DNA of 64,000 bases from an uncultured virus (IMG/VR IMGVR_UViG_3300032134_000001) (IMGVR_UViG_3300032134_000001), one strand, 5' to 3'. Counted from the first letter of the stretch, positions 6,660 to 44,767 are shown. Notes: generated from the letters alone by a model not told the origin. Translations and numbers: made by a program.

Positions 6660-6660
6660 C

Positions 6661-7914: not shown

Positions 7915-7926
7915 TGTCAGGTGGCA
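7915..7926. promoter_or_regulatory. palindromic operator copy TGTCA-GG-TGGCA
   Basis: Intergenic, upstream of the AAA ATPase; matches the recurring GTGCCA-N2-TGGCAC motif. Confidence 0.6.
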
Positions 7927-7930
7927 CTCT

Positions 7931-22116: not shown

Positions 22117-22551
22117 TCAAGAGAGTTCCTCTCGGACAGCCATGAGCAGCTTTCCAAGCCAGTTCTCGCCGGGGATGGAGGCGTGCTCTGAGCAGCGGCA
22201 GTCCCCCCACTCTTGATCGTGCCAGGTGTTGCCCTCGATCAGCTCCTCCTCGCCCGTCGCCAGGAGGCGCTTGCCGAGGTGCTCGTGCCGTCGGAACTTC
22301 TGGAGAAGGAGCTTCCCCATGACCCCGCGCTTGATCTCCTCCCAGTCCTCGCGCAGCGTGACAGCCCGACCGAGCCGCTTGGCTCTTCCTGGTGTGGCCG
22401 CGCCGGCGATGATGCGGCGCTGACTGGCGCTGAGAGTCTTCGCGGCCTGGAAGGCGTACTCCGTGGAGTCGTATTCCTCGTCCTCGAAGGTCACCTGCGC
22501 AGGGAAGAAGTTGCTGAGGTAGCGATGCACGCCATCGAAGCTGTCGATCAT
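22117..22551 (-). CDS. NADAR (YbiA-like) family protein
   Basis: LSNFFP, EYAFQAAK, AKRLGR, LLATGEEELIEGNTWHD and GENWLGKLLMAVR. Confidence 0.92.
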   Translation of the reverse strand: MIDSFDGVHRYLSNFFPAQVTFEDEEYDSTEYAFQAAKTLSASQRRIIAGAATPGRAKRLGRAVTLREDWEEIKRGVMGKLLLQKFRRHEHLGKRLLATGEEELIEGNTWHDQEWGDCRCSEHASIPGENWLGKLLMAVREELS

Positions 22552-22931
22552 TCCTCACCGCCCTCGTGTGCGATCTCTGCCAGCATCTCCAGCGGTGTTG
22601 CTTGGACCTTCGGGTAGATGAGGCGCTGCCAGAGCACCTTGCCGTCCTCGCCGGTCTCCCTCATCTGCCAGATGCCCTTGTCCGCGTGCAAGCCCCCGAC
22701 CCCGTCACACCAGGACGGGATGCGCTTCTCGTCCGGTCCTATGAGGTCGCCCCAGCGGTAGATCCAGAAGCTGCCCTTCGGCACGCCCAAGATCTCACGG
22801 ACGAACTCCGTGGCCTCTTCGGGAATCTGCTTCCTGTTCGGGGGCGGGACCCTCCGACGCGCACGCCGCCGCTTCCGTCTCAGCCCCGGCACCGCCAGCG
22901 AAGCCACCCACCCTCGGACCGGAGGGCTCAT
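22548..22931 (-). CDS. hypothetical protein with C-terminal TPLEMLA tag
   Basis: Coupled ORF. Confidence 0.7.
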   Translation of the reverse strand: MSPPVRGWVASLAVPGLRRKRRRARRRVPPPNRKQIPEEATEFVREILGVPKGSFWIYRWGDLIGPDEKRIPSWCDGVGGLHADKGIWQMRETGEDGKVLWQRLIYPKVQATPLEMLAEIAHEGGEE

Positions 22932-26313: not shown

Positions 26314-26607
26314 GTGGGAGATCGCTGCCGCTTCAACGGCTGCTTCTGGGGTGTTGGCCACGAGGGGCCTCACGAGACGCGATGTCGAGGCTGCGGCGGG
26401 ACCAACCTGGTCGCGTCGATGGCTGTTCGGAGGGCCTACTTCTACGCCGATGCTGACGGGGATGGCCTGCCGCGGCCCAGCGACGAGGACATCCGGCACT
26501 GGACGACTTGTCCGTGCCGGCGACCGACGCCGCTTGAGTTGCTGGCTGCGGTCGGAAAGGAGCTGGACGCCACCTCCCTGCCGGAGTATGACAGTTGGCA
26601 CGGATAG
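26314..26607 (+). CDS. Cys-rich small protein with TPLELLA tag
   Basis: ...CRRPTPLELLAAVGKE. Confidence 0.7.
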   Translation: MGDRCRFNGCFWGVGHEGPHETRCRGCGGTNLVASMAVRRAYFYADADGDGLPRPSDEDIRHWTTCPCRRPTPLELLAAVGKELDATSLPEYDSWHG

Positions 26608-31701: not shown

Positions 31702-33759
31702 ATGGAGTGGACGCCCCAGCTTGGCGGGACCTTCTGGCAGGCATCCCCTTCCGGTCAGGGCGGGGGCCGCTACTGGGTTCGCGAGGTGCTGCTGGGCACT
31801 GACATCAACGGGTGTCCGATGCAGGACTCTGTGACCTGCTATGAGGTCGGCTTCTCCCCGCGACGTGGCGGGCACGAGCGGTTCGAGATGCACTACCGGC
31901 ACCCCGAAGACGCGATGGATGCGGCCGAGCAGGACTGGGCCTTGCGGCAGTTCGGGCCCGCGGCGGAGAAGAACCCCACCAACGCGACCGGAGTGCCCCT
32001 CTTCCAGTTCTCTCACCGGCACAAGCTCTCGGAGGGCTACCCGGAGGACAAGCAAGAGCTGGTGGGTCTCCTACAGGCCCCCTGGGTGCCTCTTGGCGAC
32101 ACACTGTCAGCTTGGATGTCCTGGGGCTGGCGACTCGGAGAGCCTCACAAGGACCCCAGCTACCTGGCTCAGCTTCGCGCAGATGAGCACTACCACCTCT
32201 GGCACTACGCCGGGTATGCAGCTCGCATCACGGGAGGCCCTGAGTTCCTCGGGCGTTTTGCCGGTCCTGCCCAGGCCAACGAGGCTGCGAAGTGGGACCA
32301 GAAGGTCCGTGCTGGTCTGGGCTTGTTCGGGCCCAAGAAGACCCGACGGAACCCCATTCCTGGTGTGGAGCGGCACTACCGGAACTACCTGCGCGAGGGG
32401 AAGCTCGACTGGGCCTCGAACGAGGTGCTCGTCTGGCGACCCCGCTCCCCCCAGGCTGCGCACCCGGCCTACTCCATCGAGTCTCAGACGCGGGGAAGCC
32501 ACGGGCCGTGGCGTGTCCTCTACTCCCACACCGTGGCTTGCTGGCACTCGGGGGACAAAGACGAGCTGCCAGGAAGTCCCTTCCGCAGCCTGCGTGATGC
32601 CATCTTGGCCGCGAAGAAGGACTGGGCGCTGGCTCAGTTCGGGCCGGCACAGCAGTCCGCACCCGCTAAGGAGAATCCCATGAGAAAGCCCCGTAAGAGC
32701 CGGAAGAACCCCGGCCGCAGCACCTACCTCCGGCAGCGCCACCCGAACCTGACCGCGGAGGACAATCCTCACACCTCGGAGTGGCTGATCGTCACGCCGC
32801 ACAGCAACATGTCGAAGGTGCGGCGCGTAGCGAAGGTGCTCATCGACTGGGGCTACGCGACGGAGGTCTCGATTCGTCGGACGATGGAAGGCTCCAAGCA
32901 GGCGCTGGGCGTGACGCTCAAGAACGTGCCTGTGATCCGGGTTCCCATCGCACCGCGGAAGGCCGGGGCAGCCTACGCTGCCGGTCCGCCATGGCGCTAC
33001 GCCGCGAACATCCCGACCATCGAGAGCTACCTGGGTCAGTTCGGCAAGGTGGTGGGCTACGCCACGCACGCGCGGGAGAATCCACAGAAAGACAAGCGGA
33101 TGTCGGCGTTGCCCCGGAAGTACCAAGGGGACGACGTCTACGACCCCAGAGAGGAGGCTGTCCGGGCCGTCGCTCGTGGGACAGGCGGGAAGTGGGGCGT
33201 CGCTGTCGGGACCTACTTGGCGCAGCACAGCGTCGGGGAAGTCATTCAGCGGAGCTGGGAGCGGTACCAGGACCCCGATGCGGTGCTCCGCAAGCGCCAG
33301 GCCTACGAGGTGATGCTCAGCGAACAGCGGCAGTCGAGTCCCTACCGGGTCACAGCCGAGCCCACGGCAGCGGGGCTTCGCTACTTCGTCTGGCCCATGC
33401 GCAAGGGGCAGCGGGTGCCCAAGGCGTACACGACGATGCGCGCGGCCGAGCGCCGGCTGGCCGAGACCTACTACGATGACCGGCCGGTAGCCGGCCTGCC
33501 TCGCAGGGCCTACACCAAGGCAGAGCTGTCTGACTGGCTCCCGCCCGAGAGCATCTTCAAGGGCCGGTCGGGCCACCCCACGCGGGCCAAGATCACAGCT
33601 GACCGGAAGGCAACCCGGACTGCGACGACGACTACGCGCTGCTTCCCGGCGAACAGCCCCGAGCTGGTGAGGGCCTACCGCCGCCACGACCCAGACTGGT
33701 GCCACGACCCTGAGCTGCTGCGTCGCTACCGGGCCGGGAAGATGCCTCCCAAGAGGTAG
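31702..33759 (+). CDS. large basic modular protein punctuated by xxNP motifs (probable virion protein)
   Basis: EKNP, RRNP, KENP, RKNP, EDNP and RENP; three modules ending AA..D....FGP..NP. Confidence 0.75.
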   Translation: MEWTPQLGGTFWQASPSGQGGGRYWVREVLLGTDINGCPMQDSVTCYEVGFSPRRGGHERFEMHYRHPEDAMDAAEQDWALRQFGPAAEKNPTNATGVPLFQFSHRHKLSEGYPEDKQELVGLLQAPWVPLGDTLSAWMSWGWRLGEPHKDPSYLAQLRADEHYHLWHYAGYAARITGGPEFLGRFAGPAQANEAAKWDQKVRAGLGLFGPKKTRRNPIPGVERHYRNYLREGKLDWASNEVLVWRPRSPQAAHPAYSIESQTRGSHGPWRVLYSHTVACWHSGDKDELPGSPFRSLRDAILAAKKDWALAQFGPAQQSAPAKENPMRKPRKSRKNPGRSTYLRQRHPNLTAEDNPHTSEWLIVTPHSNMSKVRRVAKVLIDWGYATEVSIRRTMEGSKQALGVTLKNVPVIRVPIAPRKAGAAYAAGPPWRYAANIPTIESYLGQFGKVVGYATHARENPQKDKRMSALPRKYQGDDVYDPREEAVRAVARGTGGKWGVAVGTYLAQHSVGEVIQRSWERYQDPDAVLRKRQAYEVMLSEQRQSSPYRVTAEPTAAGLRYFVWPMRKGQRVPKAYTTMRAAERRLAETYYDDRPVAGLPRRAYTKAELSDWLPPESIFKGRSGHPTRAKITADRKATRTATTTTRCFPANSPELVRAYRRHDPDWCHDPELLRRYRAGKMPPKR

Positions 33760-33835
33760 CACTCCGAGTTCCTTCGCCAGTGAGTGCCAGCAGGCACCCC
33801 GAGCTAAGGTCAGCACAGACCTGCGGAGAACTCAC

Positions 33836-34954
33836 ATGGCTCGACGCCGAAAGACCCAGCGGAATCCGCGCCGAGGAGGCGTCGGGAGAGGCTCGTTCAC
33901 TTCGGACGGCTTCCAGCGGACTGCGGCCCTCTCGCAGGTGGGCCAGGCTCCATCTACGACCCGGAACATCTACACGTCGAGACCGACGCTTCAGGCGGTT
34001 CGGGTCTATCCAAGCGGTGAGCCGTTCCAGTCGGTCACCAAGCAGTTGGAGCCAGTCTACGTCCCTGCGGTCACGCAGACAGAGGGGCCCCGGATCGCCC
34101 CTCCGAGTCCCAGTGTGGCCCAGACTCCACCCGGCTACCTCCGTCGTGGCACGGGCTACAGCCGCATCTCTCTCGCCTCACAGCCTGGCGCGGCCACGGC
34201 CGAAGCCACGTTGATGAAGCAGCTCATCGACCCTCAGCTCTGGCGGCTGGCGGACGGTGGTGACCGCTGGGCCATGCACGAGCTTCAGCGCCGTGGGCCA
34301 GCACACTACCGTCCTGCCCGCCCAAACCCGAGGGCCCGCCGCAACCCCAGTCAGCGCGTCGAGCGCTTCTACAACAAGGCTGTCCGAGCCACGCAGAACC
34401 CCTCGGCGGAGGGGCGTGCGAAGTACTGCAAGTACGTCGGCACTATCGCCAAGATTCATGTCGAGACGGGGGGCCGGGCCCCGCTTCATGCCATGGACCC
34501 CCGCGTGGCAGAAGACGTGCTGAGGATGGTCGAGAAGATGGGCGGCGTGCAGGCGGTCGACAATCCCCGCGTCGCTGCCTTCGTCTCCGATGGCTACGGC
34601 CTGCGGGCGCGGGATCTGACCCGGGACAAGGCTCGACTCCCGTCACGTGGTTCCGGCTCGCGCGGGGGATACACGCCTGATGAGCGCAAGGCCCTGCCTG
34701 CAGTGATGTTCCTGAAGCCGTCGACCCGCTCCTGGCCGGTCGCGGACGAGGCTCACTTCGTCATCGCTCTCCAGTACATGACTCGGGGCTTCGGCAGCCC
34801 GGGCGAGTACCCGAAGCTCCTGCGGCGCCTGGCCAAGCTCTGGCCCGTGGCACAGCACCGGAGCCTCTGGGCAGAGTTCACCCGTCTGCGGCCCAAGATC
34901 GTGGCCAAGGCACCTCGGTCCATCCCGACCCTCGCCCAGCTGCGGAGAGTCTGA
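33836..34954 (+). CDS. Arg-rich xxNP protein with DUF6582-like C-terminal domain
   Basis: QRNP, RPNP, RRNP, TQNP and VDNP; TPDERKALPAVMFLKPSTRSWPVADEAH. Confidence 0.7.
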   Translation: MARRRKTQRNPRRGGVGRGSFTSDGFQRTAALSQVGQAPSTTRNIYTSRPTLQAVRVYPSGEPFQSVTKQLEPVYVPAVTQTEGPRIAPPSPSVAQTPPGYLRRGTGYSRISLASQPGAATAEATLMKQLIDPQLWRLADGGDRWAMHELQRRGPAHYRPARPNPRARRNPSQRVERFYNKAVRATQNPSAEGRAKYCKYVGTIAKIHVETGGRAPLHAMDPRVAEDVLRMVEKMGGVQAVDNPRVAAFVSDGYGLRARDLTRDKARLPSRGSGSRGGYTPDERKALPAVMFLKPSTRSWPVADEAHFVIALQYMTRGFGSPGEYPKLLRRLAKLWPVAQHRSLWAEFTRLRPKIVAKAPRSIPTLAQLRRV

Positions 34955-34955
34955 G

Positions 34956-35261
34956 ATGCCTCGCCGTGTCGCCTACTTGACCTTCGAGCCCTCGACGTAC
35001 AGCACGGGGCTGGCCTTTCCTGGCCAGGGCCTCCCGCCGCAGGAGGTCTACGGCTCGGCTGAAGGCGAGGAGTACGGCTTCATCGTCACGGGGCCGCTTC
35101 TGCTGGCCTCCTACCTGCTCGCAGACGAGGAGGAGAGGAAGGCGAAGACGGCGTTGATCAAGAAGTACTGGTGGGTGGCCTTCCTGGTCGCGCCCTTGGC
35201 CTACGTCGGCATCAACAAGGGCCTGGACCTCGTGGCGGCGCAGAAGGGGAAGACAGCATGA
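34956..35261 (+). CDS. small membrane protein with FEPSTYS...EYG leader
   Basis: Hydrophobic segments follow EEYG. Confidence 0.7.
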   Translation: MPRRVAYLTFEPSTYSTGLAFPGQGLPPQEVYGSAEGEEYGFIVTGPLLLASYLLADEEERKAKTALIKKYWWVAFLVAPLAYVGINKGLDLVAAQKGKTA

Positions 35262-37063
35262 GCCAGTCCACCTTCGCAGACCGAACTGTCCTCCGCATCT
35301 TGGGGGAGCAGGGACCAAGCCGCACAGCATTGATCACGGTGTGGGCCTGGGATGACGCTGTGACCAAGCTCCAGGTGCTCACCGCGGTCAAGAAGCTGCG
35401 AGACCTGGGGGCCATCGAGGTCGGTCCTCCCGACCCGCGGGGTGAGCAGACCTGGCAGCTCTCCACGCACGCCCGCAACAACCCCAACTGGGACTGGTGG
35501 AAGAAGGAGGCCACGCGGCGCGGGAAGCGGGCAGGCAAGCGAGCCCAGTACGGCGCGAAGGTCGGCTACAAGTACGGCAAGAAGGGCGCGAAAGAAGCAG
35601 CTCGTCGCAGCAGGCACGGTGCAGCCCTCGCAGCTTGGAAGGCCAAGGAGCAGGCAGCAGCCGCGGACATCTACCGCTTGGAGAGCTGCGCTTCGGCCCT
35701 CGGCTTCGACCCCTACAAGCTCCCCGCCCCTGGCGACCAGGTGATCAGCCGGGCCTACAGCAAGCGGGCGAAGATCCGGGACACACAGCGCCCGTTGCTC
35801 GCCAACTACAACCCCCGAGCCCGCGACAACTTCTTCTGGGGCAAGAAGAAGACCAGTGCGCCGATGCTGCCGGTCATCCCCTTCGAGGAGGCCCTCCAGC
35901 GAGCACGAGCCCTGGGCAAGCAGGCTCCCCTGACTCGCGACCAGTACTACCTGGTGCGGATGCCGGCTCCCGGCGGGCGCCCGGGGACCATGTGGTACTT
36001 CCTGAACGGCCTTCGCGACCGCTCCTTCGAGATGGCCTCGGGCAGTGCCAGCCCCAAGGGCTACATCACGCGTGCGGACCCCTGGCGGGACGTCTACAAC
36101 AACTTCCGGGCTCACCGCAGCCCGGAGAAGTACAGCGTCGTCTTGCTCGATACGCTGGAGAACAAGGTCGGAGGGGTCTACGACTATGCCCGTGTCGCAG
36201 CCACCATCCAGGCCAAGGCCAAGGCCAATCCTGAGTTCCAGGTGGTCGCTTTGGGGCATCCGTCGTGGGACACGGAGGCTCGGCTTTACGCCCCTTACGA
36301 CTACGAGGTAGACGCTCGAAGTCTGAGGGCAGCTCGAAAGCAGCTCAGGCAAGAGGGCTACGCAGTCCACACTGGCTACGACCATGCCAGCCCTGAGTAC
36401 CCGGGAGAGCCTCGGAAGAGCAAGAAGTCCCGGAAGGCTCGAAGGAAAGGGAAGAGGGCCAAGGCCAATCCCCAGGCTCGGGAGAACTGGCAGGCGCAGG
36501 CCGCTCAGCTTGCCATCCAGTTCGGGGTGCCCATCGCCAAGAAGATCGGGGCAAAGAGGTGGGGCATCCTCATGGCCATGTCCGTGGACGAACGGACTGA
36601 TTGGCTGCTCAACACCGCCAAGATGACCTCGTGGCTCGGCGGACCTGCTGGGCGAATCGGCTTCGGTGTGTGGCCCGACAAGATCCAGAGGAAGGTGTTC
36701 AGGGCCGTCTCGGAGGCGATGACTGACCCGCAGGTGCAGCAGGCGACCCTGGAGGCTGCGAAGCTCGGTGGGTCGGTGGCCCAAGCCAAGTACGGCAAGG
36801 CGGCTGCGAACCCGGCTCCGATGGTCTGGGAAGAGCGCATCTACCAGAACGGGAAGCTCTACAACACCCTCCACTTCGACACGCTCGACGACTTCTTCCG
36901 CATGATCGACGGGGAGGACCCCCAAGAGGGCAACGAGCAGGTCTACGCCAACTGGAAGGGGGGCCGCGGGTCGGCCGAGACCTGGTACGTCGACGGGACC
37001 GACACGCGGTGGACGCTGAAGTTCAGGAAGGTCCAGGACCCACGCCGCCGCCGACGACGATAG
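35258..37063 (+). CDS. large basic modular xxNP protein
   Basis: MSQSTF start; ARNNP, ANYNP, ARDN, AKANP twice, AREN and AAANP. Confidence 0.75.
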   Translation: MSQSTFADRTVLRILGEQGPSRTALITVWAWDDAVTKLQVLTAVKKLRDLGAIEVGPPDPRGEQTWQLSTHARNNPNWDWWKKEATRRGKRAGKRAQYGAKVGYKYGKKGAKEAARRSRHGAALAAWKAKEQAAAADIYRLESCASALGFDPYKLPAPGDQVISRAYSKRAKIRDTQRPLLANYNPRARDNFFWGKKKTSAPMLPVIPFEEALQRARALGKQAPLTRDQYYLVRMPAPGGRPGTMWYFLNGLRDRSFEMASGSASPKGYITRADPWRDVYNNFRAHRSPEKYSVVLLDTLENKVGGVYDYARVAATIQAKAKANPEFQVVALGHPSWDTEARLYAPYDYEVDARSLRAARKQLRQEGYAVHTGYDHASPEYPGEPRKSKKSRKARRKGKRAKANPQARENWQAQAAQLAIQFGVPIAKKIGAKRWGILMAMSVDERTDWLLNTAKMTSWLGGPAGRIGFGVWPDKIQRKVFRAVSEAMTDPQVQQATLEAAKLGGSVAQAKYGKAAANPAPMVWEERIYQNGKLYNTLHFDTLDDFFRMIDGEDPQEGNEQVYANWKGGRGSAETWYVDGTDTRWTLKFRKVQDPRRRRRR

Positions 37064-37072
37064 CGCTGGGCG

Positions 37073-37834
37073 ATGCGGATTCTTCACACCAGCGACCTCC
37101 ACGGGATGTGGCGGCTTCCGATGCGCTACGAGGACTTCGATGTCTGGGTGGACACGGGTGACTTCATCCCCAACGTCTCGCGAGGCGAGCGGGTCGAGGC
37201 CAACTTCCAGCGCCTCTGGCTGACCAAGAGCAAGCTCAAGGTCCGCAAGCTGACCATGCCGTGGCTCCGAGAGCGCTACGGCTCAGAAGCAAGCTACTGG
37301 TACCCCAAGGGGTCGCGTCAGCCGCCGTCCTCGGGCAGCATTGTCGGTGAGCTGACTCGCTGGCTTCGTGGACGCCCGTTCATCTCGGTGCAAGGCAACC
37401 ACGACTTCACCAGCCTGGCCCGGCCAATGCAGAGGGCAGGGGCCAAGGTGTGGGATGTCGCTGACGGGCCTGTCGAGATTGACGGTGAGCGGTTTGCTGG
37501 GTTCCGGCACATCCCCTTCATCACAGGCGAGTGGGCGGGTGAGATGGGTCGGGGGGTTCTCGGTACGATGGAAGGGGCGCGGCGGACGGCTAAGGCGATG
37601 GCAGCCGACCCGACGGTGCTTGTGACTCACTCCCCCGGGATGGGTGTTCTCGACCAGTGCCCGTCCAAGGGGGGTCGCTGTGGCATCCCTGGCATCACCA
37701 CGCACCTCTTCATGAAGCCGAACCGGGTCAAGCTCCATCTCTTTGGCCACGTCCATGAGGAGCCCAACGTGCATCAGGAGGACGGCATCGTCTTCTCGAA
37801 CGCGGCGCAAACAGCCAGGATCATTCACCTGTGA
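37073..37834 (+). CDS. calcineurin-like metallophosphoesterase
   Basis: SDLH, TGD, GNHD, THSP and FGHVHE. Confidence 0.9.
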   Translation: MRILHTSDLHGMWRLPMRYEDFDVWVDTGDFIPNVSRGERVEANFQRLWLTKSKLKVRKLTMPWLRERYGSEASYWYPKGSRQPPSSGSIVGELTRWLRGRPFISVQGNHDFTSLARPMQRAGAKVWDVADGPVEIDGERFAGFRHIPFITGEWAGEMGRGVLGTMEGARRTAKAMAADPTVLVTHSPGMGVLDQCPSKGGRCGIPGITTHLFMKPNRVKLHLFGHVHEEPNVHQEDGIVFSNAAQTARIIHL

Positions 37835-38328
37835 GTTGGCTCGACCGCTTCGAGGGCATCAGTCCGACTCGTCGCATCGTCTTGGCCACCGGGCCAATCA
37901 CGCGCTTCGTCAACATGAGGTCGCGGCAGTCGATGGAGTTCAAGCCCAAGGGCCTCTGGTACGCCTGCGGTGACGCTTGGCTCGACTGGCTCGACTCTGG
38001 GATGCCCGAGTGGAAAGAGAACACCACGCACATCTACGAGCTGAAGCTCGGGGTCGGTGTGCTCTACCTCAAGAGTGCCGCTGAGGTGGAAGAGTTCGCC
38101 GCTCGCTACGCGAAGGGTCGCTTCCCCGGCGACAGGTCGGCGTACATCGACTGGCCCACAGTTGCTCGCCGCTACACGGGGATCGAGATCTGCCCCTACC
38201 AGTGGGAGCTGCGCATGAAGGCGGGCTTCATGTGGTACTACGGCTGGGACGTGGCCTCTGGCTGTATCTGGGCCCAGCCCGGAGTCAGCCAGATCATGCT
38301 CCTGGCCACGAAGCCGGGGGTCGGCTGA
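37831..38328 (+). CDS. conserved viral hypothetical protein
   Basis: KPKGLWYACG, IDWPTVARRYTGIEI and WYYGWDVASGCIW. Confidence 0.75.
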   Translation: MSWLDRFEGISPTRRIVLATGPITRFVNMRSRQSMEFKPKGLWYACGDAWLDWLDSGMPEWKENTTHIYELKLGVGVLYLKSAAEVEEFAARYAKGRFPGDRSAYIDWPTVARRYTGIEICPYQWELRMKAGFMWYYGWDVASGCIWAQPGVSQIMLLATKPGVG

Positions 38329-38630
38329 TGGCGAACAAGTACACCCTCTTCGCAGGGCGCAAGCTCACTGGGCTGGTCTTCTGCGTGGTCGGGATGGTCG
38401 GGACAGCTCTGGGCACGCTGGGTCTCTGTGCGGCTGAGATGCTGGACGCCAGCTTCGCCACCAACATCACCATCACGGTCGTGAGTGGCATCGGCACGCT
38501 GTTCGCCACTTTCGTCGGTGGCAACTACGGCGAGCACATCGCCAAGAACAAGTACGGCAACGGGCACGCTACTCCTCCTGGGCCGGTGTCTCCTCCCTCA
38601 GAGCCTGCTGTCTCAGCTCCTCCTTCGTGA
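38328..38630 (+). CDS. two-TM membrane protein (holin-like)
   Basis: GRKL followed by two TM helices, then GGNYGEH. Confidence 0.6.
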   Translation: MANKYTLFAGRKLTGLVFCVVGMVGTALGTLGLCAAEMLDASFATNITITVVSGIGTLFATFVGGNYGEHIAKNKYGNGHATPPGPVSPPSEPAVSAPPS

Positions 38631-38772
38631 CGATCCACTGGGCCAAGAGGACGATGCCCGCCAAGTCGTGGGCGGCATCCGCACTGAGGTGGGTACCGGG
38701 GTCGGCATCGGAGAGCTTGGCCCACCACCCAACCAGGCCACGGGCCAGTTGCAGGGCACGCTGCTCGGCCAT
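38569..38772 (-). CDS. small counter-oriented hypothetical protein
   Basis: Extended -10 TGcTACTGT 6 nt before the ATG; helical protein-like sequence. Confidence 0.5.
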   Translation of the reverse strand: MAEQRALQLARGLVGWWAKLSDADPGTHLSADAAHDLAGIVLLAQWIVTKEELRQQALREETPAQEE

Positions 38773-38853
38773 GACCACACAGTAGCACTCCGTCTGCGCC
38801 CGACCAGGCGACCAAAGAAGCTGCTTCTGCTACTACTCCTGGAGGAGTACCTC

Positions 38854-39237
38854 ATGGCCCACGCCCAAGACAACCCCGCCTGGACACCCCTGGGCCTTCT
38901 CGCTGTTGGTCTCGTCGGGGCTGGCGCGTGGTGGCTCTACTCGGAGCGGCAGAAGGACAAGGAAGCCGAAGAGGCGTTCCTCGCCCTGGCGGCCGAGGTT
39001 GAGCTGGAGCAGGGCTTCAACCCCATGACGCTGATCACCAAGGTCGGCAACATGATGGGGGACCTGAAGGTCACGGGCCTCAGCGCCCTGAAGAGCGGCA
39101 GCGTTGTCGAAGACGACCTGGGTGAAGAGCACAAGTACACGGCGGGGAAGGCGTGGCTTGTCCAGGCCACGATTCACGGCGACCCCGTTGTCCTCCTTGT
39201 GCGGCGCAACGGGTCCGTCGAACTTCTGGAAGGCTGA
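38854..39237 (+). CDS. membrane protein with N-terminal TM
   Basis: GGAGGAG RBS; MAHAQDNP then a TM segment; second FNP. Confidence 0.75.
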   Translation: MAHAQDNPAWTPLGLLAVGLVGAGAWWLYSERQKDKEAEEAFLALAAEVELEQGFNPMTLITKVGNMMGDLKVTGLSALKSGSVVEDDLGEEHKYTAGKAWLVQATIHGDPVVLLVRRNGSVELLEG

Positions 39238-39240
39238 GCC

Positions 39241-39747
39241 ATGTCAGAGCACGACGACTACGCCCGCTCAAGAATGTCCTTCCGTCCGTCGGTCTACTCG
39301 ACGGGCGTGGAGCCAGTGCAGTCCTACACGCCGGTGTGGCCTGAGGGGCAGGAGTACGGAGCCTGGTACAGCCCTGACCAGCTCTACAAGTACACTCCCA
39401 TCGGCTACGTCTACGACAAGTACATGACCGAGAAGGAGGAGTCCGCGGGTGGTCTCTGCACGGACTGGGACGGTGCTCTGGGCAAGAAGGGTGCGCAGGT
39501 CAGCTGCCACGAGCTGGCTCAGAAGATGGGCCTCAAGGGTGCAGGTGAAGGCGAGTTCTCGCCCTCCGACCTCCTGCCTACGGCAGTCCAGGAAGTCCTG
39601 GGCATCGAGGACAAGCCCGGCTGCGACGAGGACTGTCAGCGCAAGAAGAAGTGGAAGCAGGCGCTCGGCATCCTGGTGCCTCTGATCGGTGTGGTCGGCG
39701 GTGTCGTCGCCTACCAGCGCTACCAGAAGACGGGGAAGATCATCTGA
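39241..39747 (+). CDS. C-terminally anchored protein with FRPSVYS...EYGA leader
   Basis: Four Cys; C-terminal TM flanked by basic residues. Confidence 0.75.
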   Translation: MSEHDDYARSRMSFRPSVYSTGVEPVQSYTPVWPEGQEYGAWYSPDQLYKYTPIGYVYDKYMTEKEESAGGLCTDWDGALGKKGAQVSCHELAQKMGLKGAGEGEFSPSDLLPTAVQEVLGIEDKPGCDEDCQRKKKWKQALGILVPLIGVVGGVVAYQRYQKTGKII

Positions 39748-40256
39748 TGCCCCTCATGCACCACGTCGAGCGGCTCTCGATCTCTGACCCTCGCTACAAC
39801 GTCCGCGAGATCGTGAAGCAGATGCTCCTGCTGGAGCAGCACCTGCTCGAAGAGAGCAAGTACTGCCCGGACTGTATCTCCAAGCACATCCTCACCATCG
39901 AGGCGCTGGCGGAGGAAGGGCAGAACCTGGACAGGAACCAGGAGTGGAGCAAGACCTTCACTCCGCTGGTCGGCAAGGCCCGCGTCTGGGGCGCAGCCTT
40001 CTCTGCCGGTGCGCCCCCCAAGCACATCGGACAGGCCGTGCGGAAGGTCCGCAAGACCTTGGCTCCCGACCTGCTCTCCCCCATCGCGCAGTCGGAGCTG
40101 GACCAGCTCGACACGACAGAGCTGGCAGGCTTCATCGGCCCGGACATGGGAACGGGTGAGTGGAAGGTCTGGGCCGTGCTCTTCGCAGGCCTCGCCGCCG
40201 GCGTGTGGCTGACAGAACGCAGGCTTGGGCCCAACGCCCAGAGGAGGCTGACATGA
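39747..40256 (+). CDS. C-terminally anchored protein
   Basis: LLLEQHL...CPDCISKH; C-terminal TM. Confidence 0.75.
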   Translation: MPLMHHVERLSISDPRYNVREIVKQMLLLEQHLLEESKYCPDCISKHILTIEALAEEGQNLDRNQEWSKTFTPLVGKARVWGAAFSAGAPPKHIGQAVRKVRKTLAPDLLSPIAQSELDQLDTTELAGFIGPDMGTGEWKVWAVLFAGLAAGVWLTERRLGPNAQRRLT

Positions 40257-40507
40257 GCCAGTACGACAAGTTGGTGGGCGGGCGTCTCCTGCAGAACCCC
40301 GAGCCTTCCATGCCGACTCACTACATCGACGACGCCCAGTACGAGATGCTGATGGACGCGCTCAACAACCCGGCGAAGGGTCATGGTGTGGCCTGGTGGA
40401 CTGCGGTGGTGGTTGGGGTGGGCCTCGTGGTCTTCCCCGAGCCTGCGACGACTGCGACGGGCCTGGCTCTCTTGGCCGGTACTCTCACGCTCGGGTCCAT
40501 GAAGTAG
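40253..40507 (+). CDS. small membrane protein
   Basis: LQNP and LNNP; VFPEPATTATGL hairpin TM. Confidence 0.7.
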   Translation: MSQYDKLVGGRLLQNPEPSMPTHYIDDAQYEMLMDALNNPAKGHGVAWWTAVVVGVGLVVFPEPATTATGLALLAGTLTLGSMK

Positions 40508-41385
40508 TGAGCCAGCTCCGCCACACCCTGACCGACCTCCTCGCGAACCTGCGAGCTATCCATTGGCACGCTTGGAACACGCACTGGAAAGCTCAGGGTG
40601 GAGATTCGTACTCCGACCACCTCCTGTTCCAGCGCATCTATGCAGGGGACGGGGGAGGCCCGAAGATCGAGGACCAAATCGACGGTCTGGGCGAGCGCAT
40701 CATCGCTTTGTTCGGCAACAGGTCGGTGGATGGAGTGGCTATCTCCCGCAAGGCGGCCGACATCCATCAGCGCATACAAGACATGGGCAGGGTGGCTGGG
40801 GCTTTGGCTTTGGAGAAGGAAGCGCTCCAGCGTGTAGCAGCAGTAGCAGACCAAGTAGAGAAAGGTCCTGCCGAGCTGCGCGTTAGCCTCGACAACTTCG
40901 TCCGAGAGCTTGCCGATTCACGCAGCACGGTCATCTACCTGCTCCAGCAGAGGCTGAAGGGCGGGACAGACAACTATGGCGCTGTGTCTGCCGACACCCT
41001 CTCTACCGGAGGAATGGTTGGAGGGGCTGCACTTATCACCGGCATCATCCTCCTCCCCTCTCTTGTCATCACCCCCTTTATTCTCAAGGCCTTCGTACCC
41101 AAGTGGAGCTACGGACGACGGGTGGTGGCTGGCTTTGGCCTCGGCATGGGCATCGCAGCGATCACGAGAGTTGTGAAGGCAGCGAACCCTTCCACTGTGG
41201 TGGTGGAAGAGGCAAGATCCAACGTGGTTTACCTGGATGACTACCGGGACGTCGGTACTCTTGTTGACGAAGACGAAGAAGCTCTCTTCACGGCGGAAAG
41301 GCGGGGACAACTCATGGGCTGGGCCTTCCTGGGTCTCATGGGGTACGTCGCCTACTGGAACTCTCAGCAGCCTCAGAGGGGGTAG
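40507..41385 (+). CDS. Dps/ferritin-like domain fused to three TM segments
   Basis: NTHWKAQGGDSYSDHLLFQRIY and EDQIDGLGERI (Dps pattern); DNYGA then hydrophobic helices. Confidence 0.8.
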   Translation: MSQLRHTLTDLLANLRAIHWHAWNTHWKAQGGDSYSDHLLFQRIYAGDGGGPKIEDQIDGLGERIIALFGNRSVDGVAISRKAADIHQRIQDMGRVAGALALEKEALQRVAAVADQVEKGPAELRVSLDNFVRELADSRSTVIYLLQQRLKGGTDNYGAVSADTLSTGGMVGGAALITGIILLPSLVITPFILKAFVPKWSYGRRVVAGFGLGMGIAAITRVVKAANPSTVVVEEARSNVVYLDDYRDVGTLVDEDEEALFTAERRGQLMGWAFLGLMGYVAYWNSQQPQRG

Positions 41386-41388
41386 ACG

Positions 41389-41745
41389 ATGATCGAGCTG
41401 ATCACCCGCTGGCTCCAGGCCGTCTGCTCTCACGACGTGAACCGAGTCCTGTCGCTCTACTGCTCCGATGCGGTGCTGCTGGGCACCTTCGCGTCGGAGA
41501 TCAAGCAGGGCCAGGAGTTGGTCGACTACTTCCGTGCGTTCCTCGGCAAGTCTGAGCTTTGCGGCCAGATCGACGAGTGCATCATGCAGGAGACACCAGG
41601 CGGGCCCGTCCTCTCTGGGATCTACACCTTCTGGTGGGTTGGGCCTGGCGGTCCTGAACGGGAACGGGCTCGCTTTTCCTTCGTCTTCACGCTGGTCGGA
41701 GAGGACTGGCTGATCGTGAATCACCACTCGTCGCTGGTGCCCTGA
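41389..41745 (+). CDS. NTF2-like (SnoaL/CaMKII-association-like) protein
   Basis: LYCSDAVLLGT, SGIYTF, ARFSFVF and WLIVNHHSS. Confidence 0.85.
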   Translation: MIELITRWLQAVCSHDVNRVLSLYCSDAVLLGTFASEIKQGQELVDYFRAFLGKSELCGQIDECIMQETPGGPVLSGIYTFWWVGPGGPERERARFSFVFTLVGEDWLIVNHHSSLVP

Positions 41746-42749
41746 TGCCTGGCGTGCGCATGGGAGCCGGTCCCGCGACGGGCCAGTACTACGTCACCAT
41801 CGCCGGCGAGCGGGGCATGAGCCCTGATGGCTGGCACTGGGGCTACCTCGCTGGTCGAGTCCCCGAGCTGGTGAAGATCAAGGGCCCCCTGGTGCCCGGC
41901 ACCCGCATCCAGTTCAAGCGGATGCACGGGAACACGGCGACCCAGTGGGCCATCCTGCGCGACCGTCAGCGGATGCCTCAGCACAGCGCCCGCGGGATGC
42001 CCGGGCCTGGCATGGTGGGCTTCGACGCCTACTCGATGCACCCCGGCGTCCGCGTGGTGGTGCCTCCTGCCCGAGTCAACCCCTTGGAGTTCCAGCCCTC
42101 CGAGTACAGCGGCGACTACGGGTGGGCTTCGTCCTTCCCGGTGGCCGCCCTGACGGTGAGCGCGACGGCCAGGGCTCGGGGCATGAGCAACCAGCCGGCC
42201 ACCTCGACCCACAACAGCAACCTCTCGCTCCTGTCGGACTTCCTCGGCAAGCTGCCCTTCACCCTGCGGATCAACTCGGGGTACCGGGCCCCTGACGTGA
42301 ACTCCGCGGTCGGCGGTGCGAAGTCCAGCCAGCACATGAACGGGCTCGCGGTCGATGCCTCGCCTCAGGGCGTGAGCAACAAGGACGTGGCAGCCTGGCT
42401 GTTCGAGCACCGGCGTGAGTTCCCCGAGCTGGACCAGGTGATCTGGTACACAGACACGAGCCACATCCACATCGGAATCTGCCCAGCTCGGGGTCAGAAC
42501 TGCGCGAGAAGCTCCGGGTCCCGAGGCGAGTTCCTCCGGGCTAACAAGGAGGGCGGCACCTACCTCCCGTGGGCGCCGACGGCAGAAGAGACCGCCAAGA
42601 TGGCTGCACTCTACGCTTACCACCGGCCCGTGCAGAGCCTGGCCTTTGTCTGGGGGCTGAGCCTGGTCGGCGCGGCCGGCGTGCTCGGCCTGCTGTTCTT
42701 CATCGAGAAGAAGGTGGAGGCGAAGCGAGCCGCGAAGGCGACGGCCTGA
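41745..42749 (+). CDS. peptidase M15A-like zinc peptidase with N-terminal extension and C-terminal TM
   Basis: INSGYR...NSAVGGAKSSQHMNGLAVD...HIHIG. Confidence 0.88.
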   Translation: MPGVRMGAGPATGQYYVTIAGERGMSPDGWHWGYLAGRVPELVKIKGPLVPGTRIQFKRMHGNTATQWAILRDRQRMPQHSARGMPGPGMVGFDAYSMHPGVRVVVPPARVNPLEFQPSEYSGDYGWASSFPVAALTVSATARARGMSNQPATSTHNSNLSLLSDFLGKLPFTLRINSGYRAPDVNSAVGGAKSSQHMNGLAVDASPQGVSNKDVAAWLFEHRREFPELDQVIWYTDTSHIHIGICPARGQNCARSSGSRGEFLRANKEGGTYLPWAPTAEETAKMAALYAYHRPVQSLAFVWGLSLVGAAGVLGLLFFIEKKVEAKRAAKATA

Positions 42750-43396
42750 TGCCGGTCTTCCAGCCCAGCCCCTACAGCCGCCGCACCAATCCCATGTGGA
42801 TCTACCGGGGGCAGTACCTCGATACCGGGGGTGACTACGGCGGCCCCGCGGACCAAGCAGTGGGCCTCAACAGCGGGCAGCGGGCCAACGCCCGCATCAT
42901 CGAGCGCGAGTTCAGCGCTGCGGGGTTCGGCTCTCCGGTGGTCGCTGCGGCGATCATCAACGCCCTCGCGGAGTCCATGCTGAACAACGAGGCTGTAGGA
43001 GACGGTGGGTCCTCCGTGGGCCTCTTCCAGCTGCACGAGCGCGGCGGTGGGCACGGGATGAGCGTCGAGGACCGGAAGAACCCGACACTCAACACCCGGC
43101 GCATCATCGACCAGGCCAAGAAGGCCAAGGGCTTCATGGCGAAGGTCCATGCGGGAGTCACCTCAGTCCCTGAGCTGGCCGCAGCCTTCTCCACCTACGT
43201 GGAACGGCCAGCTGACAAACCCGGCAACGAGGTCAAGCGCGCGGCGATGGTCGCGCGTTACTTCCCCGGAGAGCTTGCCGCCCTGGCGACTCACGAAGTG
43301 AAAACAGCCCCCTGGTGGATGTGGGGGTTGATGGTCTCGTCCACCCTGGTCGCTCTCTGGGGCCTCAAGGGGGTGGTGCAGAACAGGAGGAAGTAG
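42749..43396 (+). CDS. phage-tail-lysozyme-like peptidoglycan hydrolase with C-terminal TM
   Basis: AAIINALAES, GDGGSSVGLFQ and YVERPA; start at MPVFQPSPYS. Confidence 0.8.
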   Translation: MPVFQPSPYSRRTNPMWIYRGQYLDTGGDYGGPADQAVGLNSGQRANARIIEREFSAAGFGSPVVAAAIINALAESMLNNEAVGDGGSSVGLFQLHERGGGHGMSVEDRKNPTLNTRRIIDQAKKAKGFMAKVHAGVTSVPELAAAFSTYVERPADKPGNEVKRAAMVARYFPGELAALATHEVKTAPWWMWGLMVSSTLVALWGLKGVVQNRRK

Positions 43397-43397
43397 G

Positions 43398-43661
43398 ATG
43401 CCCGAGTACGACATCAACGCGGTCATCGAGACGGGTGACTACGACCTGACCATCCAGGAGAGGCTGCCCTTCCGCAAAGGTGAGGAGATGGCCTACGAAG
43501 TGCTGGAGGGCGGCATTGTCCAGGAGGACGGGAGCATCCCTTGCACCGTCAAGCTCAAGCTCCCGCCGCGTCTCCGAGGCCGCGTGGTGAAGGCCAGGCT
43601 GGTCCCACACAACCGCACCGTCCCGCTGCTGATGGGGATGGGCGTCACCGGGTTGGCTTGA
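43398..43661 (+). CDS. hypothetical protein
   Basis: AGGAGG RBS. Confidence 0.7.
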   Translation: MPEYDINAVIETGDYDLTIQERLPFRKGEEMAYEVLEGGIVQEDGSIPCTVKLKLPPRLRGRVVKARLVPHNRTVPLLMGMGVTGLA

Positions 43662-44146
43662 TGAAGCCCGTCGAGTTGCACATCTACGACTTCGATGGCG
43701 CGCTCTACGACAGCCCCCGGCTTCGCGTAGATCGACCGGACTGGTGGTACTCCGCCAAGAGCCTGAAGGGCTGGGGAGCACCAGGGCGCGACTCGAAGTG
43801 GATTCTCGGCACGGTGGTGCAAGCTCGCCGCTCTGCCCAGACGCCGTGGGTGTGGTCCGCGCTCCTCACCGGCCGCCCCGAGCACCGGGAGATGACTCAG
43901 ACCCTGCGGCAGATGCTCTCGGGTGCTGGCCTTCGCTTCAACACGGTGCAGCTCAAGCCGATCTGGCCTCCGATCGGGACGCCGGCCTACAAGGCGCTGA
44001 AGGTGGTGGACTGGATCACGGACCACCCGACCATCCGCAAGGTGGACTACTACGATGACCTCCAAGAGAACCTCGACGCGGTCGGGGCCGTCGTAGTGGA
44101 CGCGGGACTGCGGTACACCCCCCACCTGACAGCGGGTGTCTCGTAG
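43661..44146 (+). CDS. HAD-superfamily phosphatase (Swiss-Army-Knife RNA-repair-like)
   Basis: IYDFDGALYDSP, LLTGR, LKP and YYDD. Confidence 0.8.
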   Translation: MKPVELHIYDFDGALYDSPRLRVDRPDWWYSAKSLKGWGAPGRDSKWILGTVVQARRSAQTPWVWSALLTGRPEHREMTQTLRQMLSGAGLRFNTVQLKPIWPPIGTPAYKALKVVDWITDHPTIRKVDYYDDLQENLDAVGAVVVDAGLRYTPHLTAGVS

Positions 44147-44221
44147 CACCGCAGGTTGAGCAGGGTGCGGGGCGCGGCAGTGCCGCCCGGCTAAGCTGCT
44201 ACCTCTAAGGAGAGCTTCCCC

Positions 44222-44767
44222 ATGGCTGTCGACGGAATCTTCACGATGCTCCTCTCCGCTCGCGAGACTCTGGCCACCCCAGAGAACCGCAGCGGGGTCA
44301 TCTTTGACTCCATGCGGCAGAGCTATGCCTTCTCCAACGGCACTGGTGTCGCCCAGAACGACCTGGTCTGGTCTGACCGCATCACGGTTGCTGGGGGGGA
44401 CACGGCCATCATCGACTTCGCTCCTCTGTCCTTGGACCTGGGCGGCGGTGGCGGTGCTGTGGCACAGACCGATGCTTTCGGCAACGCCATGACCTTCGTG
44501 GAGGTGACAGCGCTTGCTATCCGCAACCGCGAGACCGTGGCCGGCACCCGGACCCTCAACTTCGGCCCGGCTGCTGTCAACCCCTTCCTCTGGCTCTTCC
44601 TGGACGCCTCGGACCTGGTCGTCATCGTGCCCAACGGGGCCTACATGCAGTGGTCAGATGAGGCCCAGACTGTCACGGCCGGGGCCAGCGACAGCTTGCG
44701 CTTCATCAACACGGACGGCGTGAACGCAGTCACCTTCGACATCCTCTTCACGGGCCGGTCTGCGTAG
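44222..44767 (+). CDS. beta-rich probable virion structural protein
   Basis: Own promoter/RBS (TAAGCT, AAGGAG); Gly/Ala/Thr-rich and lacks Lys. Confidence 0.6.
   Translation: MAVDGIFTMLLSARETLATPENRSGVIFDSMRQSYAFSNGTGVAQNDLVWSDRITVAGGDTAIIDFAPLSLDLGGGGGAVAQTDAFGNAMTFVEVTALAIRNRETVAGTRTLNFGPAAVNPFLWLFLDASDLVVIVPNGAYMQWSDEAQTVTAGASDSLRFINTDGVNAVTFDILFTGRSA

Follow-up and report, generated by a model that had tools for sequence, protein, structure and literature searches.

An FxPSxYS leader that looks like an undescribed address label on otherwise unrelated membrane-anchored proteins of uncultured phage-like elements

The window analysed here is a stretch of 64,000 bases, 64 kb of an element of about 167 kb, and all of its genes numbered below (g1 to g18) lie on the plus strand. 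Among its replication genes sits a cluster, at 34.9–43.4 kb, with nine membrane proteins encoded within 8.4 kb. Ahead of it lie g1 (31702–33759) and g2 (33836–34954), which encode large, very basic proteins with four AxxNP motifs each; g4 (35258–37063) encodes a third such protein with five. Flanked by these basic, AxxNP-rich neighbours is g3 (34956–35261), a 101-residue protein with FEPSTYS (34983–35003), EVYG, EEYG (35067–35078), two hydrophobic segments and a basic C-terminal tail. Its only database homologue is 93% identical, and its counterpart in L070, a syntenic 5.3-kb contig, is a 93-residue protein that begins MTFEPSQHS..EEYGF and carries a TM hairpin. Further downstream, g7 (38328–38630; 100 residues) has, from hydropathy and the list of [DEN]YG sites, two TM helices with GGNYGE after the second; it gave no family match in Pfam and PHROG searches and is holin-like by shape only.

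The second leader protein, g9 (39241–39747; 168 residues), carries the leader module FRPSVYSTGVEPVQSYTPVWPEGQEYG from 39280, with FRPSVYS at 39280–39300 and QEYG at 39349–39360, followed by a mini-domain with Cys residues, a TM helix at the C-terminus and the tail YQRYQKTGKII. Its conserved neighbour g8 (38854–39237; 127 residues) has an N-terminal AQDNP, an instance of AxxNP, then a TM helix and a soluble domain; the A, N and P are invariant in the three aligned counterparts, from the window, L070 and G001, a relative of 136,910 bases. Two tail-anchored companions without the FxPS leader follow at 39747–40507, and their homologues keep the same order in L070: g10 (169 residues) is helical, contains a CPDC motif and ends in a TM segment plus basic tail, and g11 (84 residues) has ALNNP ahead of its TM segments. 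The product of g12 (40495–41385; start codon uncertain) comprises a Dps/ferritin-like domain (phrog_3636, 4.7e-8), the sequence GGTDNYGA (DNYG at 40972–40983), a TM hairpin, whose loop reads KAFVPKWSYGRR, and a third hydrophobic segment. DNYGA thus lies between the Dps-like domain and the membrane segments, as a first-pass annotation of this DNA had observed, and it recurs in the L070 homologue as GGKDNYGAF. The TM-hairpin module of g12 also stands behind the beta-barrel domain, described below for g14, in six other proteins (P0157, P0159, P0184, P0185, P0193 and P0196). Next comes g13 (41389–41745; 118 residues), a SnoaL/NTF2-like soluble protein (Pfam SnoaL_3, 3.9e-8; DUF4440, 7.5e-8) with a homologue in L070 and none detected in G001.

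The cluster ends in two cell-wall hydrolases. The first 115 residues of g14 (41745–42089) comprise a five-stranded small beta-barrel predicted by AlphaFold2 at residues 13–75, a Pro/Gly-rich linker and ARVNP (42069–42083). This N-domain is 64–93% identical to its counterparts in 18 aligned homologues, and its type was found in 23 carriers, joined to differing cargo; the structure had no Foldseek match, and its SH3/Tudor/KOW-like matches were weak (Z up to 3.2). The second module of g14 (42090–42749) contains FQPSEYS (42090–42110), GDYG (42111–42122), a Peptidase_M15_3 domain at about 42135–42473 (Pfam PF08291, 8.8e-17), a TM segment at about 42654–42704 and the tail EKKVEAKRAAKATA. The leader does stand directly ahead of the M15 domain, as had been noted, but it is not N-terminal in this protein, since it starts at residue 116, behind the barrel-containing domain. 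In g15 (42749–43396; 215 residues) the order is MPV-FQPSPYS (motif at 42758–42778), RRTNP, GDYGG (42830–42841), a lysozyme-like domain at about 42887–43249 (Pfam PF18013, 4.7e-7; PF18896, 3.4e-4), a C-terminal TM helix and the tail QNRRK. Beyond the cluster, g18 (44222–44767; 181 residues) encodes an all-beta-looking protein with AAVNP (phrog_22694, 2.1e-18), homologous to gene 9 of Streptomyces phage Hiyaa, two genes past the major head protein (tblastn, 31–34% identity, E 1e-7 to 6e-4).

The pattern F.PS.YS matches the six frames of the window exactly four times, each time in the coding frame of g3, g9, g14 or g15; these are the four sites that the first-pass annotation had picked out, and four looser patterns return the same sites and nothing more. 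For the window proteome (100 ORFs, 19,730 residues) the expected count is 0.0024, and only 4 of 2000 within-protein shuffles yielded at least one match. The serine codons vary between copies (TCG, TCC, AGC), so the motif is conserved at the level of protein and is not a DNA repeat. The strict motif occurred once in 514,769 bases from 69 loci with more distant lysozyme homologues, outside the lysozyme frame. The polar residue plus Tyr-Gly that had been noted after the motif is there in all four proteins (EEYG, QEYG, GDYG and GDYG), and six of the ten [DEN]YG sites of the window proteome fall in proteins of the cluster. We describe the consensus as F-x-P-S-x-[H/Y]-S, with a polar residue and Tyr-Gly usually 0–35 residues downstream.

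The four proteins are otherwise unrelated, as had been claimed: the best pair, g3 and g9, shares 47% identity over 34 leader residues, and no similarity was found outside the leaders. According to hydropathy all four end in a hydrophobic helix and a basic tail, which bears out the membrane anchor of the earlier description but not its single helix, as g3 has two hydrophobic segments. In g9, g14 and g15 the hydropathy peaks are confined to the C-terminus, bar one extra peak inside the catalytic domain of g15, and the first 30 or so residues show no hydrophobic core, twin arginine or lipobox, the leaders being polar and aromatic. On this ground we ruled against a Sec, Tat or lipoprotein signal peptide. 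Like those signals and SAR anchors, the leader would be an N-terminal, cis-acting address on enzymes that have to leave the cytoplasm; unlike theirs, its residues are polar and aromatic, and the proteins that carry it have their membrane segment at the other end. A C-terminal sorting signal of the sortase or exosortase type was also rejected: the four proteins have no common motif immediately before the C-terminal helix, and what they share is at the other end. In the AlphaFold2 model of g9, mean pLDDT is 50–60 for residues 1–50, 92 for residues 71–90 and 82–92 for the C-terminal helix, which fits a leader that is a disordered linear motif.

The leader is carried by an uncultured lineage of large (~135–170 kb) phage-like elements, and is conserved between elements of 55% and 65% G+C. 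Four proteins of L070 begin M-x-F-x-P-S-x-[YH]-S, and a start-anchored DNA pattern run over the 5.2-Mb bin of L070 gave five matches (reversed control, 0): those four, and one in a 4.5-kb contig encoding another leader protein. On contig C24 of the relative's bin, basic NP-rich proteins are again paired with leader-bearing, tail-anchored ones. F.PS.[YH]S is present in 44 of 85 homologues of the g14 M15 peptidase, inside the first 20 residues in 40 of these carriers and with F at position 3 (M-x-F) in 29. The g9 family has the motif in 25 of 27 real matches, 12–16 residues from the N-terminus and ahead of a Cys domain or a coiled coil; the sole invariant columns of its 26-sequence alignment, F14, P16, S17, G22, Y39 and G40, all belong to the leader or YG. 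Conservation among orthologs, on which the earlier proposal depended, is therefore found. So is its expectation that related hydrolases elsewhere would lack the leader: more distant homologues are without it, some starting M-Y-G-W or M-Y-G-N-Y-G, and G001 has it on a g9-like protein only. As the M15 and M15_4 enzymes of G001 are leaderless, the hydrolases do not depend on it.

At least six unrelated types of cargo follow the leader, every one with a C-terminal membrane anchor. They are M15_3 peptidases, the directly linked lysozyme-like domain of g15, the g9 family, g3-like proteins, two further proteins of L162, and the small beta-barrel domain fused to M15_3, M15_4, Amidase_2, lysozyme-like or unknown cargo or to a TM hairpin. 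Its position is either N-terminal or at a module boundary. Internal copies (P0121, P0123, P0151 and P0002) start one or two residues after AxxNP, an offset close to that from the initiator Met, as though the protein acquired a fresh N-terminus at that point. In alignments of these otherwise divergent proteins, conservation is strongest in the motif and in the YG that follows it. A signal for sorting or docking that can be moved between proteins would be expected to behave as the leader does: conservation, modularity, a place at or near N-termini and membrane-anchored cargo agree with the sorting signal first suggested. No protease was identified to go with it. The companion idea of a Gly-directed cut after YG fares worse. 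Because leaderless homologues begin with M-Y-G, YG is likelier to be the start of the mature part.

We found no published description of such a leader. The reading we favour, tentatively and by analogy, is a virion-loading tag for entry proteins that resembles the capsid targeting sequence of phage T4. The leader would be a transferable, probably disordered, N-terminal short linear motif marking unrelated, C-terminally anchored proteins and docking them, while particles assemble, to a single partner that they have in common. In this way the virion would take up cell-wall hydrolases and their companions for use in entry or ejection, much as the 10-residue sequence loads unrelated internal proteins of T4. 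A module boundary, NP or YG, would mark the end of the leader and may be a site of its removal. Binding, the partner itself, the virion destination and any cleavage are elements that we infer.

The account in PMC9026906 describes the T4 sequence as an N-terminal peptide of about 10 residues on divergent proteins, which can be transferred, is found in some and missing from others of a set of related phages, and goes with basic proteins. Like this peptide, which is found on IPI, IPII, IPIII and Alt, the FxPS leader is short, N-terminal and attached to unrelated proteins (four in the window and as many in L070, with cargo of six classes or more). The two differ in that the leader has no sequence similarity to the T4 peptide, which gp21, the prohead protease of T4, cuts after Glu; searches of the window and of 116 ORFs of G001 recognised no such protease. 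Moreover, T4 cargo is soluble while FxPS cargo is all membrane-anchored.

Several features of the cluster bear on loading into a virion. Counting for it, genes for leader proteins lie mixed with those for very basic, NP-rich ones in both the window and a relative, and g18, near the cluster, has its homologue within the head module of a tailed phage. Counting against it, the head of a tailed phage would not usually carry cargo such as nine membrane proteins encoded within 8.4 kb, particle genes were not recognised in the window or G001 and the cluster lies amid replication genes, the G001 hydrolases have no leader, and a lysis cassette, with the holin-like g7 and C-terminally anchored hydrolases, fits equally well.

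Such a cassette is the setting of the strongest alternative, which we consider possible, if doubtful: a Sec- and Tat-independent export or topology leader that helps take the large N-terminal domain of tail-anchored proteins to the periplasmic face of the host's inner membrane (N-out, C-in), or keeps the proteins inactive until then, in a lysis or envelope-remodelling module. The site of action of the M15_3 and lysozyme-like enzymes, and of the Amidase_2 and M15_4 enzymes of relatives, has to lie beyond the cytoplasmic membrane. No hydrophobic signal stands at their N-termini, and their C-terminal TM helix and basic tail predict N-out by the positive-inside rule. The Cys pairs conserved in g9 cargo and the CPDC of g10 suggest an oxidising compartment. 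As far as their reports go, the endolysins M4Lys of BSPM4 (PMC7143992), LysAP of AP1 (PMC8879335) and Enc34 ORF39 (PMC8943055) share the architecture of g14 and g15, with an N-terminal hydrolase domain, no signal peptide, and a C-terminal TM segment with basic residues; they lyse cells, and how the N-domain crosses is explicitly left unresolved. The likeness is one of architecture and not of family (PHA02564/GH24 there, Peptidase_M15_3 and PF18013, Phage_lysozyme2/SLT_3, here), the available text of these reports mentions no conserved N-terminal leader, and the leader is also borne by non-enzymes. Since such endolysins are reported, in the same text, without a signal, the leader does not seem to be needed for this architecture, and leaderless homologues with the same anchor exist. 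Nor would any known translocase read a leader that has neither hydrophobic core nor twin arginine, and basic NP-rich, Dps-like and coiled-coil cargo is unexpected in a lysis cassette.

Two readings without sorting are each improbable. The first is a regulatory pro-peptide or degron, recognised by a protease or chaperone, of host or phage, that times the activity of dangerous envelope proteins. The tagged enzymes would be lethal if active too early, the motif is fixed two residues after the initiator Met in the 29 M15 carriers noted above, the leader is of low confidence in the model, and a MoxR-type ATPase with a DUF2201 putative metallopeptidase/VWA partner is common to the window and G001. 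However, the tag is also found on non-enzymes (g3, relatives of g9 with a coiled coil, and proteins that consist of a beta-barrel and a TM part only), and in the g9 family it lies well in from the N-terminus. The second is an epitope of the mature protein, an aromatic, Pro/Gly-rich peptide that is not removed and that attaches to a component of the envelope (peptidoglycan, or a host protein of the periplasm or outer membrane); the disordered translocation epitopes of colicins offer a comparison. The residues conserved in the g9 family (F, P, S, Y, G, W, Y, G), the association with wall-acting enzymes and the persistence of YG at the extreme N-terminus of leaderless homologues would suit it, and conservation across such different G+C contents could point to a conserved host target; yet a binding epitope would not require so strict an N-terminal or boundary position.

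Particle type bears on the remaining reading. With Pfam and PHROG, neither the window nor the 116 ORFs scanned from G001 gave a recognisable capsid, portal, terminase, scaffold or prohead protease, or a jelly-roll capsid (double or single), FtsK/HerA-type packaging ATPase or adenain-like protease, in a search that divergent capsids would escape. Encapsulin cargo-loading peptides are likewise short and bring proteins of unrelated kinds, ferritin-like ones among them, into a shell that resembles a phage capsid, but they differ from the leader in sequence and are mostly C-terminal, and no encapsulin shell was found in the available sequence of the window and G001. PRD1-type virions offer a further comparison, as they carry wall hydrolases with their membrane. 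The only hint as to virion type, the Hiyaa homologue of g18, points to a tailed phage. The model of the first-pass annotation, in which a viral protease removes the tag at a Gly-directed site after sorting to an internal virion membrane (PRD1-like or NCLDV-like), is very improbable given that these genes were not recognised, the g18 hint, the M-Y-G starts and a genome of 135–170 kb that to our knowledge far exceeds any membrane-containing phage, despite a dense cluster of small membrane proteins with two wall hydrolases that resembles the membrane-protein operons of such phages, the lack of a recognised tailed-phage hallmark in 137 kb of G001, and a search of IMG/VR contigs with two conserved proteins of the element that did not pick the element up.

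In its broadest sense, which we think rather unlikely, the leader would be a new protein-sorting signal for bacterial tail-anchored proteins. It might be the missing topogenic signal that carries large N-domains, including those of C-terminal-TM endolysins, over the inner membrane without Sec or Tat. Or it might join AxxNP and TPLExLA as one of three address codes that a large phage lineage, unclassified and without recognisable capsid genes, would use to sort its proteome to a membrane-bearing particle or intracellular compartment.

The leader, a peptide of the form F-x-P-S-x-[Y/H]-S usually followed by Tyr-Gly, is present as F.PS.YS four times in the six-frame translation of the window, and four looser patterns return the same four sites only. 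All lie in the coding frame of an ORF: g3 (34956–35261), g9 (39241–39747), the M15 peptidase g14 (41745–42749) and the lysozyme-like protein g15 (42749–43396). By chance, 0.0024 occurrences would be expected in the 19,730-residue window proteome; of 2000 shuffled versions, 4 contained a match, one each. The Ser codons of the four copies are not the same, which argues for conservation at the protein level and excludes a DNA repeat or composition artefact as the source of the motif. As the first-pass annotation had described, the four proteins are unrelated outside their leaders, each has a C-terminal hydrophobic helix and, behind it, a basic tail, [DE]YG follows every one of the motifs, and DNYG separates the Dps-like domain from the membrane part of the Dps-like protein. 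Six of the ten [DEN]YG occurrences in the proteome fall within the cluster at 34.9–43.4 kb, one of them being the NYG that a small two-TM protein has behind its second helix. Two details of that description need amending. In g14 the motif is indeed present, at residue 116 and behind a separate domain; in g3 the C-terminal helix and basic tail are as described, and the hydrophobic segments number two, not one. The motif count, proposed as a genome-wide one, covers the window, related loci and the bin of one relative.

A scan of species-representative genomes identified a 5.3-kb contig of a relative (L070) that is syntenic with the window at 38.8–42.7 kb and encodes four proteins with the start M-x-F-x-P-S-x-[YH]-S. 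These are a g9 homologue (..MSFRPSSYS..TEYG), a g3-like protein of 93 residues (MTFEPSQHS..EEYGF), a protein in which beta-barrel, TM, Amidase_2 and TM segments succeed one another (MKFKPSQHSLPNPGVR..), and an M15 peptidase (MRFVPSAHSDGEYGW). In the 5.2-Mb bin of this contig, a degenerate, start-anchored DNA pattern has five matches and the reversed control none. Four of these are in L070 itself and the fifth is in a 4.5-kb contig encoding MKFTPSGYS.. and MTTFQPSSYSRSNPAYG.., both with a C-terminal TM helix and both sitting between very basic, NP-rich proteins.

Across homologue families the leader is retained to very different degrees. Phmmer with g9 against 1.84 billion representatives returned 28 matches, from which one 4,012-residue repeat protein was set aside; 25 of the other 27 carry the motif, and the last two have FRPSSLA and FRPSVYA in its place. 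In the alignment of 26 sequences from this family, F14, P16, S17, G22, Y39 and G40 are the only invariant columns, with Y19, Y29 and W33 near-invariant, giving a family leader of FRPSVYSTGxQxxQPYTxxWPEGxxYG in front of a cargo that is a Cys-containing domain in some members and a coiled coil in others. The cargo of g9 has conserved Cys pairs, and directly after it g10 (39747–40256) encodes a helical, tail-anchored protein with a CPDC motif; to judge from these sequences, g9 and g10 may form a redox pair acting outside the cytoplasm.

In a set of 85 g14 homologues from the database, which includes the window protein itself, F.PS.[YH]S is found in 44; it falls in the first 20 residues in 40 and has its Phe at position 3 in 29. 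The sixth motif position is more often His than Tyr, and a few other homologues have degenerate variants (for example FQPSALS and FRPSEFS). Hydrolases of the same families without the leader, which the first-pass annotation had suggested looking for, do exist: lower-scoring g14 homologues start with MYGW.., MYGTY.. or MFSLSDLTVS... For g15, the leader as judged on annotated starts is confined to two of 120 matches, the window protein and P0002 (FRPSRHS..GGDYGG). No hidden leader was seen in the upstream frame of eleven loci with g15-like ORFs, the two closest of which begin MYGNYG.

A more distant relative, G001 (an IMG/VR record of 136,910 bases, 55% G+C and an estimated 85% complete), is 61% identical to the window in the primase, 52% in the SNF2 helicase and 53% in the M15 peptidase, and has in common with it ParB, the Dps-like protein and the MoxR/DUF2201 pair. 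One of its gene blocks consists of a g9-like tail-anchored protein with ..VFQPSIYSAGVEGYPVYSTRGNYGFF.., Dps-like and g8-like proteins, and M15 and M15_4 enzymes, both of which are further examples of homologous hydrolases without a leader. The HMM of the beta-barrel domain discussed below has no match in G001, and PHROG and Pfam recognised no capsid, portal, terminase or tail family among the 116 of its ORFs that were scanned. At loci L154–L160 this record has three MoxR-ATPase/DUF2201-VWA gene pairs; RIIA is present, as are about 15 tandem repeat-protein genes, all matching phrog_7713, phrog_923 and phrog_15350, and a 1,601-residue DNA polymerase ORF with extra inserted matches that is intein-like.

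The domain preceding the leader in g14 (residues 1–115, the N-domain) shares 64–93% identity with the corresponding domain of 18 aligned homologues. In the 23 carriers found it is fused to M15_3, M15_4, Amidase_2, a lysozyme-like domain, a NUDIX insert or unknown cargo, and in some it is followed by nothing but a TM hairpin (loop KAFxPKWSYGRR), which is also the anchor of the window's Dps-like protein. This two-helix module, with the conserved loop KAF(V/K)P(K/E)W(S/D)Y(G/K)RR, is a second, reused anchor type beside the single C-terminal helix: it follows both the Dps-like and the beta-barrel domain, is also part of a 93-residue leader protein, and occurs in the window at 40495–41385, in P0157, P0159, P0184, P0185, P0193 and P0196, and in L070 at 2573–2854. 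AlphaFold2 predicts the N-domain to be a five-stranded small beta-barrel (residues 13–75, pLDDT about 70–88), followed by a Pro/Gly-rich linker at low confidence. Foldseek against the PDB found nothing at E ≤ 0.001, the ESM Atlas offered no usable feature match, and VIA-align returned SH3, Tudor, KOW and FlgA-like small barrels, all weak (Z ≤ 3.2).

N-domain proteins mostly begin with the leader plus NP (MSFKPSKHSNPGVR..), while four begin MPGVR.., with Met exactly at the place of the Asn in NP. The domain always ends in ..VPPAxxNP, and what follows is either YG (NPDYGW, NPGYGLL, NPSYGAA) or, one to two residues on, a new leader (NP-LE-FQPSEYS, NP-VE-FQPSEYS, NP-MT-FQPSDPS, NP-R-FRPSRHS); leader, NP and YG therefore mark module boundaries. 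The offset of the leader from NP is nearly equal to its offset from an initiator Met. Two positions before the Phe, internal copies have Leu (TTG) in the window (42075–42110), Val in P0123 and Met in P0151. As these are all possible start-codon residues, the junctions look like fossil gene starts, left by the fusion of adjacent genes. The second module might be made separately from an internal start (TTG, GTG or ATG two codons before the Phe); no obvious ribosome-binding site was seen at the window's internal junction.

AxxNP occurs 17 times against 3.0 expected, always in seven proteins of the block at 31702–44767. It is found in large, very basic proteins at 31702–33759 (four sites), 33836–34954 (four) and 35258–37063 (five), and its other carriers are g8, where it is N-terminal, g11, where it precedes the TM helix, g14, where it lies at the domain boundary, and g18. 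In database relatives the beta-barrel domain ends with this motif, which may serve for processing (at Asn-Pro) or for docking. Distinct from it, and without overlap with the FxPS proteins, is a set of C-terminal motifs, [TS]PLExLA, present in 11 window proteins, all small, and lying about 10–30 residues from the C-terminus in eight of them; the looser PL[ED]xL[AG] occurs 15 times in 14 proteins, and about 0.07 occurrences of PLExLA are expected. The carriers lie on both strands at 1007–29164 (for example 1007–1321, 3976–4650, 8455–8751, 11039–11335, 22548–22931 and 26314–26607), in a block (1–29 kb) that also houses replication genes.

The AlphaFold2 model of g9, built from the 26-sequence alignment, has pLDDT 50–60 over residues 1–50, 92 in the small Cys domain and 82–92 in the C-terminal helix. 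Invariant yet modelled at low confidence, the leader looks like a short linear motif that would be read by a partner. Co-folding of the N-domain (residues 1–80) with the g9 leader (residues 8–46) scored 0.00, a value that counts neither for nor against binding; the N-domain is in any case absent from G001, which keeps a leader protein. As a candidate receptor, g8 was dropped, its three positional counterparts being only 18–24% identical. Blocking of the M15 active site by the leader is unlikely because non-enzymes carry it as well.

The window (65% G+C, with a strong third-position G+C bias from which about 100 likely genes were chosen) is part of a 167,369-base contig, according to the cluster entry of its own proteins. 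Pfam and PHROG name a Dda-like helicase, an SNF2 helicase, a DUF3987 primase, ParB, a PD-(D/E)XK nuclease, HNH, NADAR, and a MoxR-type ATPase with a DUF2201 metallopeptidase/VWA protein; none of their matches in the 64 kb is to a capsid, portal, terminase or tail gene. A Terminase_6N search gave sub-threshold matches only, and NCBIfam added nothing for 22 cluster proteins. The putative DUF2201 metallopeptidase (PF13203, 1.7e-32), which adjoins the MoxR-like AAA ATPase (4641–7974, minus strand), is called an HNH endonuclease by PHROG, apparently a mislabel, and is the only peptidase-like gene besides the wall hydrolases. In tblastn against 50,697 phage records, g14 has distant M15 matches only (63 records, none spanning 80% of the query), the helicase distant matches only, and g15 and the primase none; the primase has none in 72,556 plasmid records either. 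IMG/VR scans with g15 and with the N-domain alignment found no relatives, and a degenerate DNA pattern of the g9 leader had a single match there, unrelated and of low G+C.

Taken as a whole, the properties of the leader are more in keeping with a transferable tag, acting in cis for addressing or docking, than with any catalytic or structural role. We tentatively favour a virion-loading tag, which would load tagged proteins into virions as the T4 capsid targeting sequence (CTS) does. The CTS, as far as described in the source consulted, comprises ten N-terminal residues common to divergent basic internal proteins and is cut off by the prohead protease (PMC9026906). We lean towards loading because leader proteins interleave with large, very basic, AxxNP-rich proteins in both the window and the relative's bin, because the motifs act like the boundaries seen in processed polyproteins, and because a homologue of g18 lies two genes after the major head protein in Streptomyces phage Hiyaa.

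That the leader is instead an export or topology signal, with a role in lysis, seems to us rather doubtful, though it has its own arguments. Wall hydrolases with a C-terminal TM helix and no signal peptide are, in the parts of the literature consulted, a known kind of endolysin whose membrane route is unexplained (PMC7143992, PMC8879335, PMC8943055); the basic tails of the leader proteins predict an N-out topology, and a holin-like protein, Cys-pair proteins and the CPDC protein are in the cluster. Against any essential role of the leader in the hydrolases, homologues with the same anchor and no leader are common. It is improbable that the leader is a regulatory pro-peptide, and equally so that it is a binding epitope of the mature protein. 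Cleavage at YG, proposed in the first-pass annotation, is not supported in that form: leaderless homologues begin M-Y-G, so that the mature module would seem to start with YG. Sorting to an internal membrane, a form of the virion-membrane idea put forward there, is the least probable of these readings.

The combination of a hydrolase with a C-terminal TM helix is already known, and T4 provides the precedent for loading by a short peptide that several proteins share. The leader itself is without any of the defining features of Sec, Tat, lipoprotein or sortase-type signals, and a word search of the literature found no prior description, a negative of little weight because motifs cannot be queried in this way; there is a real chance that it represents a new sorting route. 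According to the part of PMC8943055 consulted, it is unknown how endolysins with a C-terminal TM helix bring the catalytic domain through the inner membrane. Here we have a family of such wall enzymes with a short N-terminal tag, invariant in the aligned sequences and common to unrelated tail-anchored proteins, which provides a concrete, mutable handle. If the leader is a loading tag, it would follow the T4 CTS as the second portable peptide of natural origin for virion loading, open to the same engineering uses, and would aid in reading the proteome of an uncultured lineage of 135–170 kb elements in which no structural genes were recognised. Three separate short motifs, each in a gene block of its own, appear to be in use in the window's genome, which would therefore be a good system in which to study linear-motif addressing in phages.
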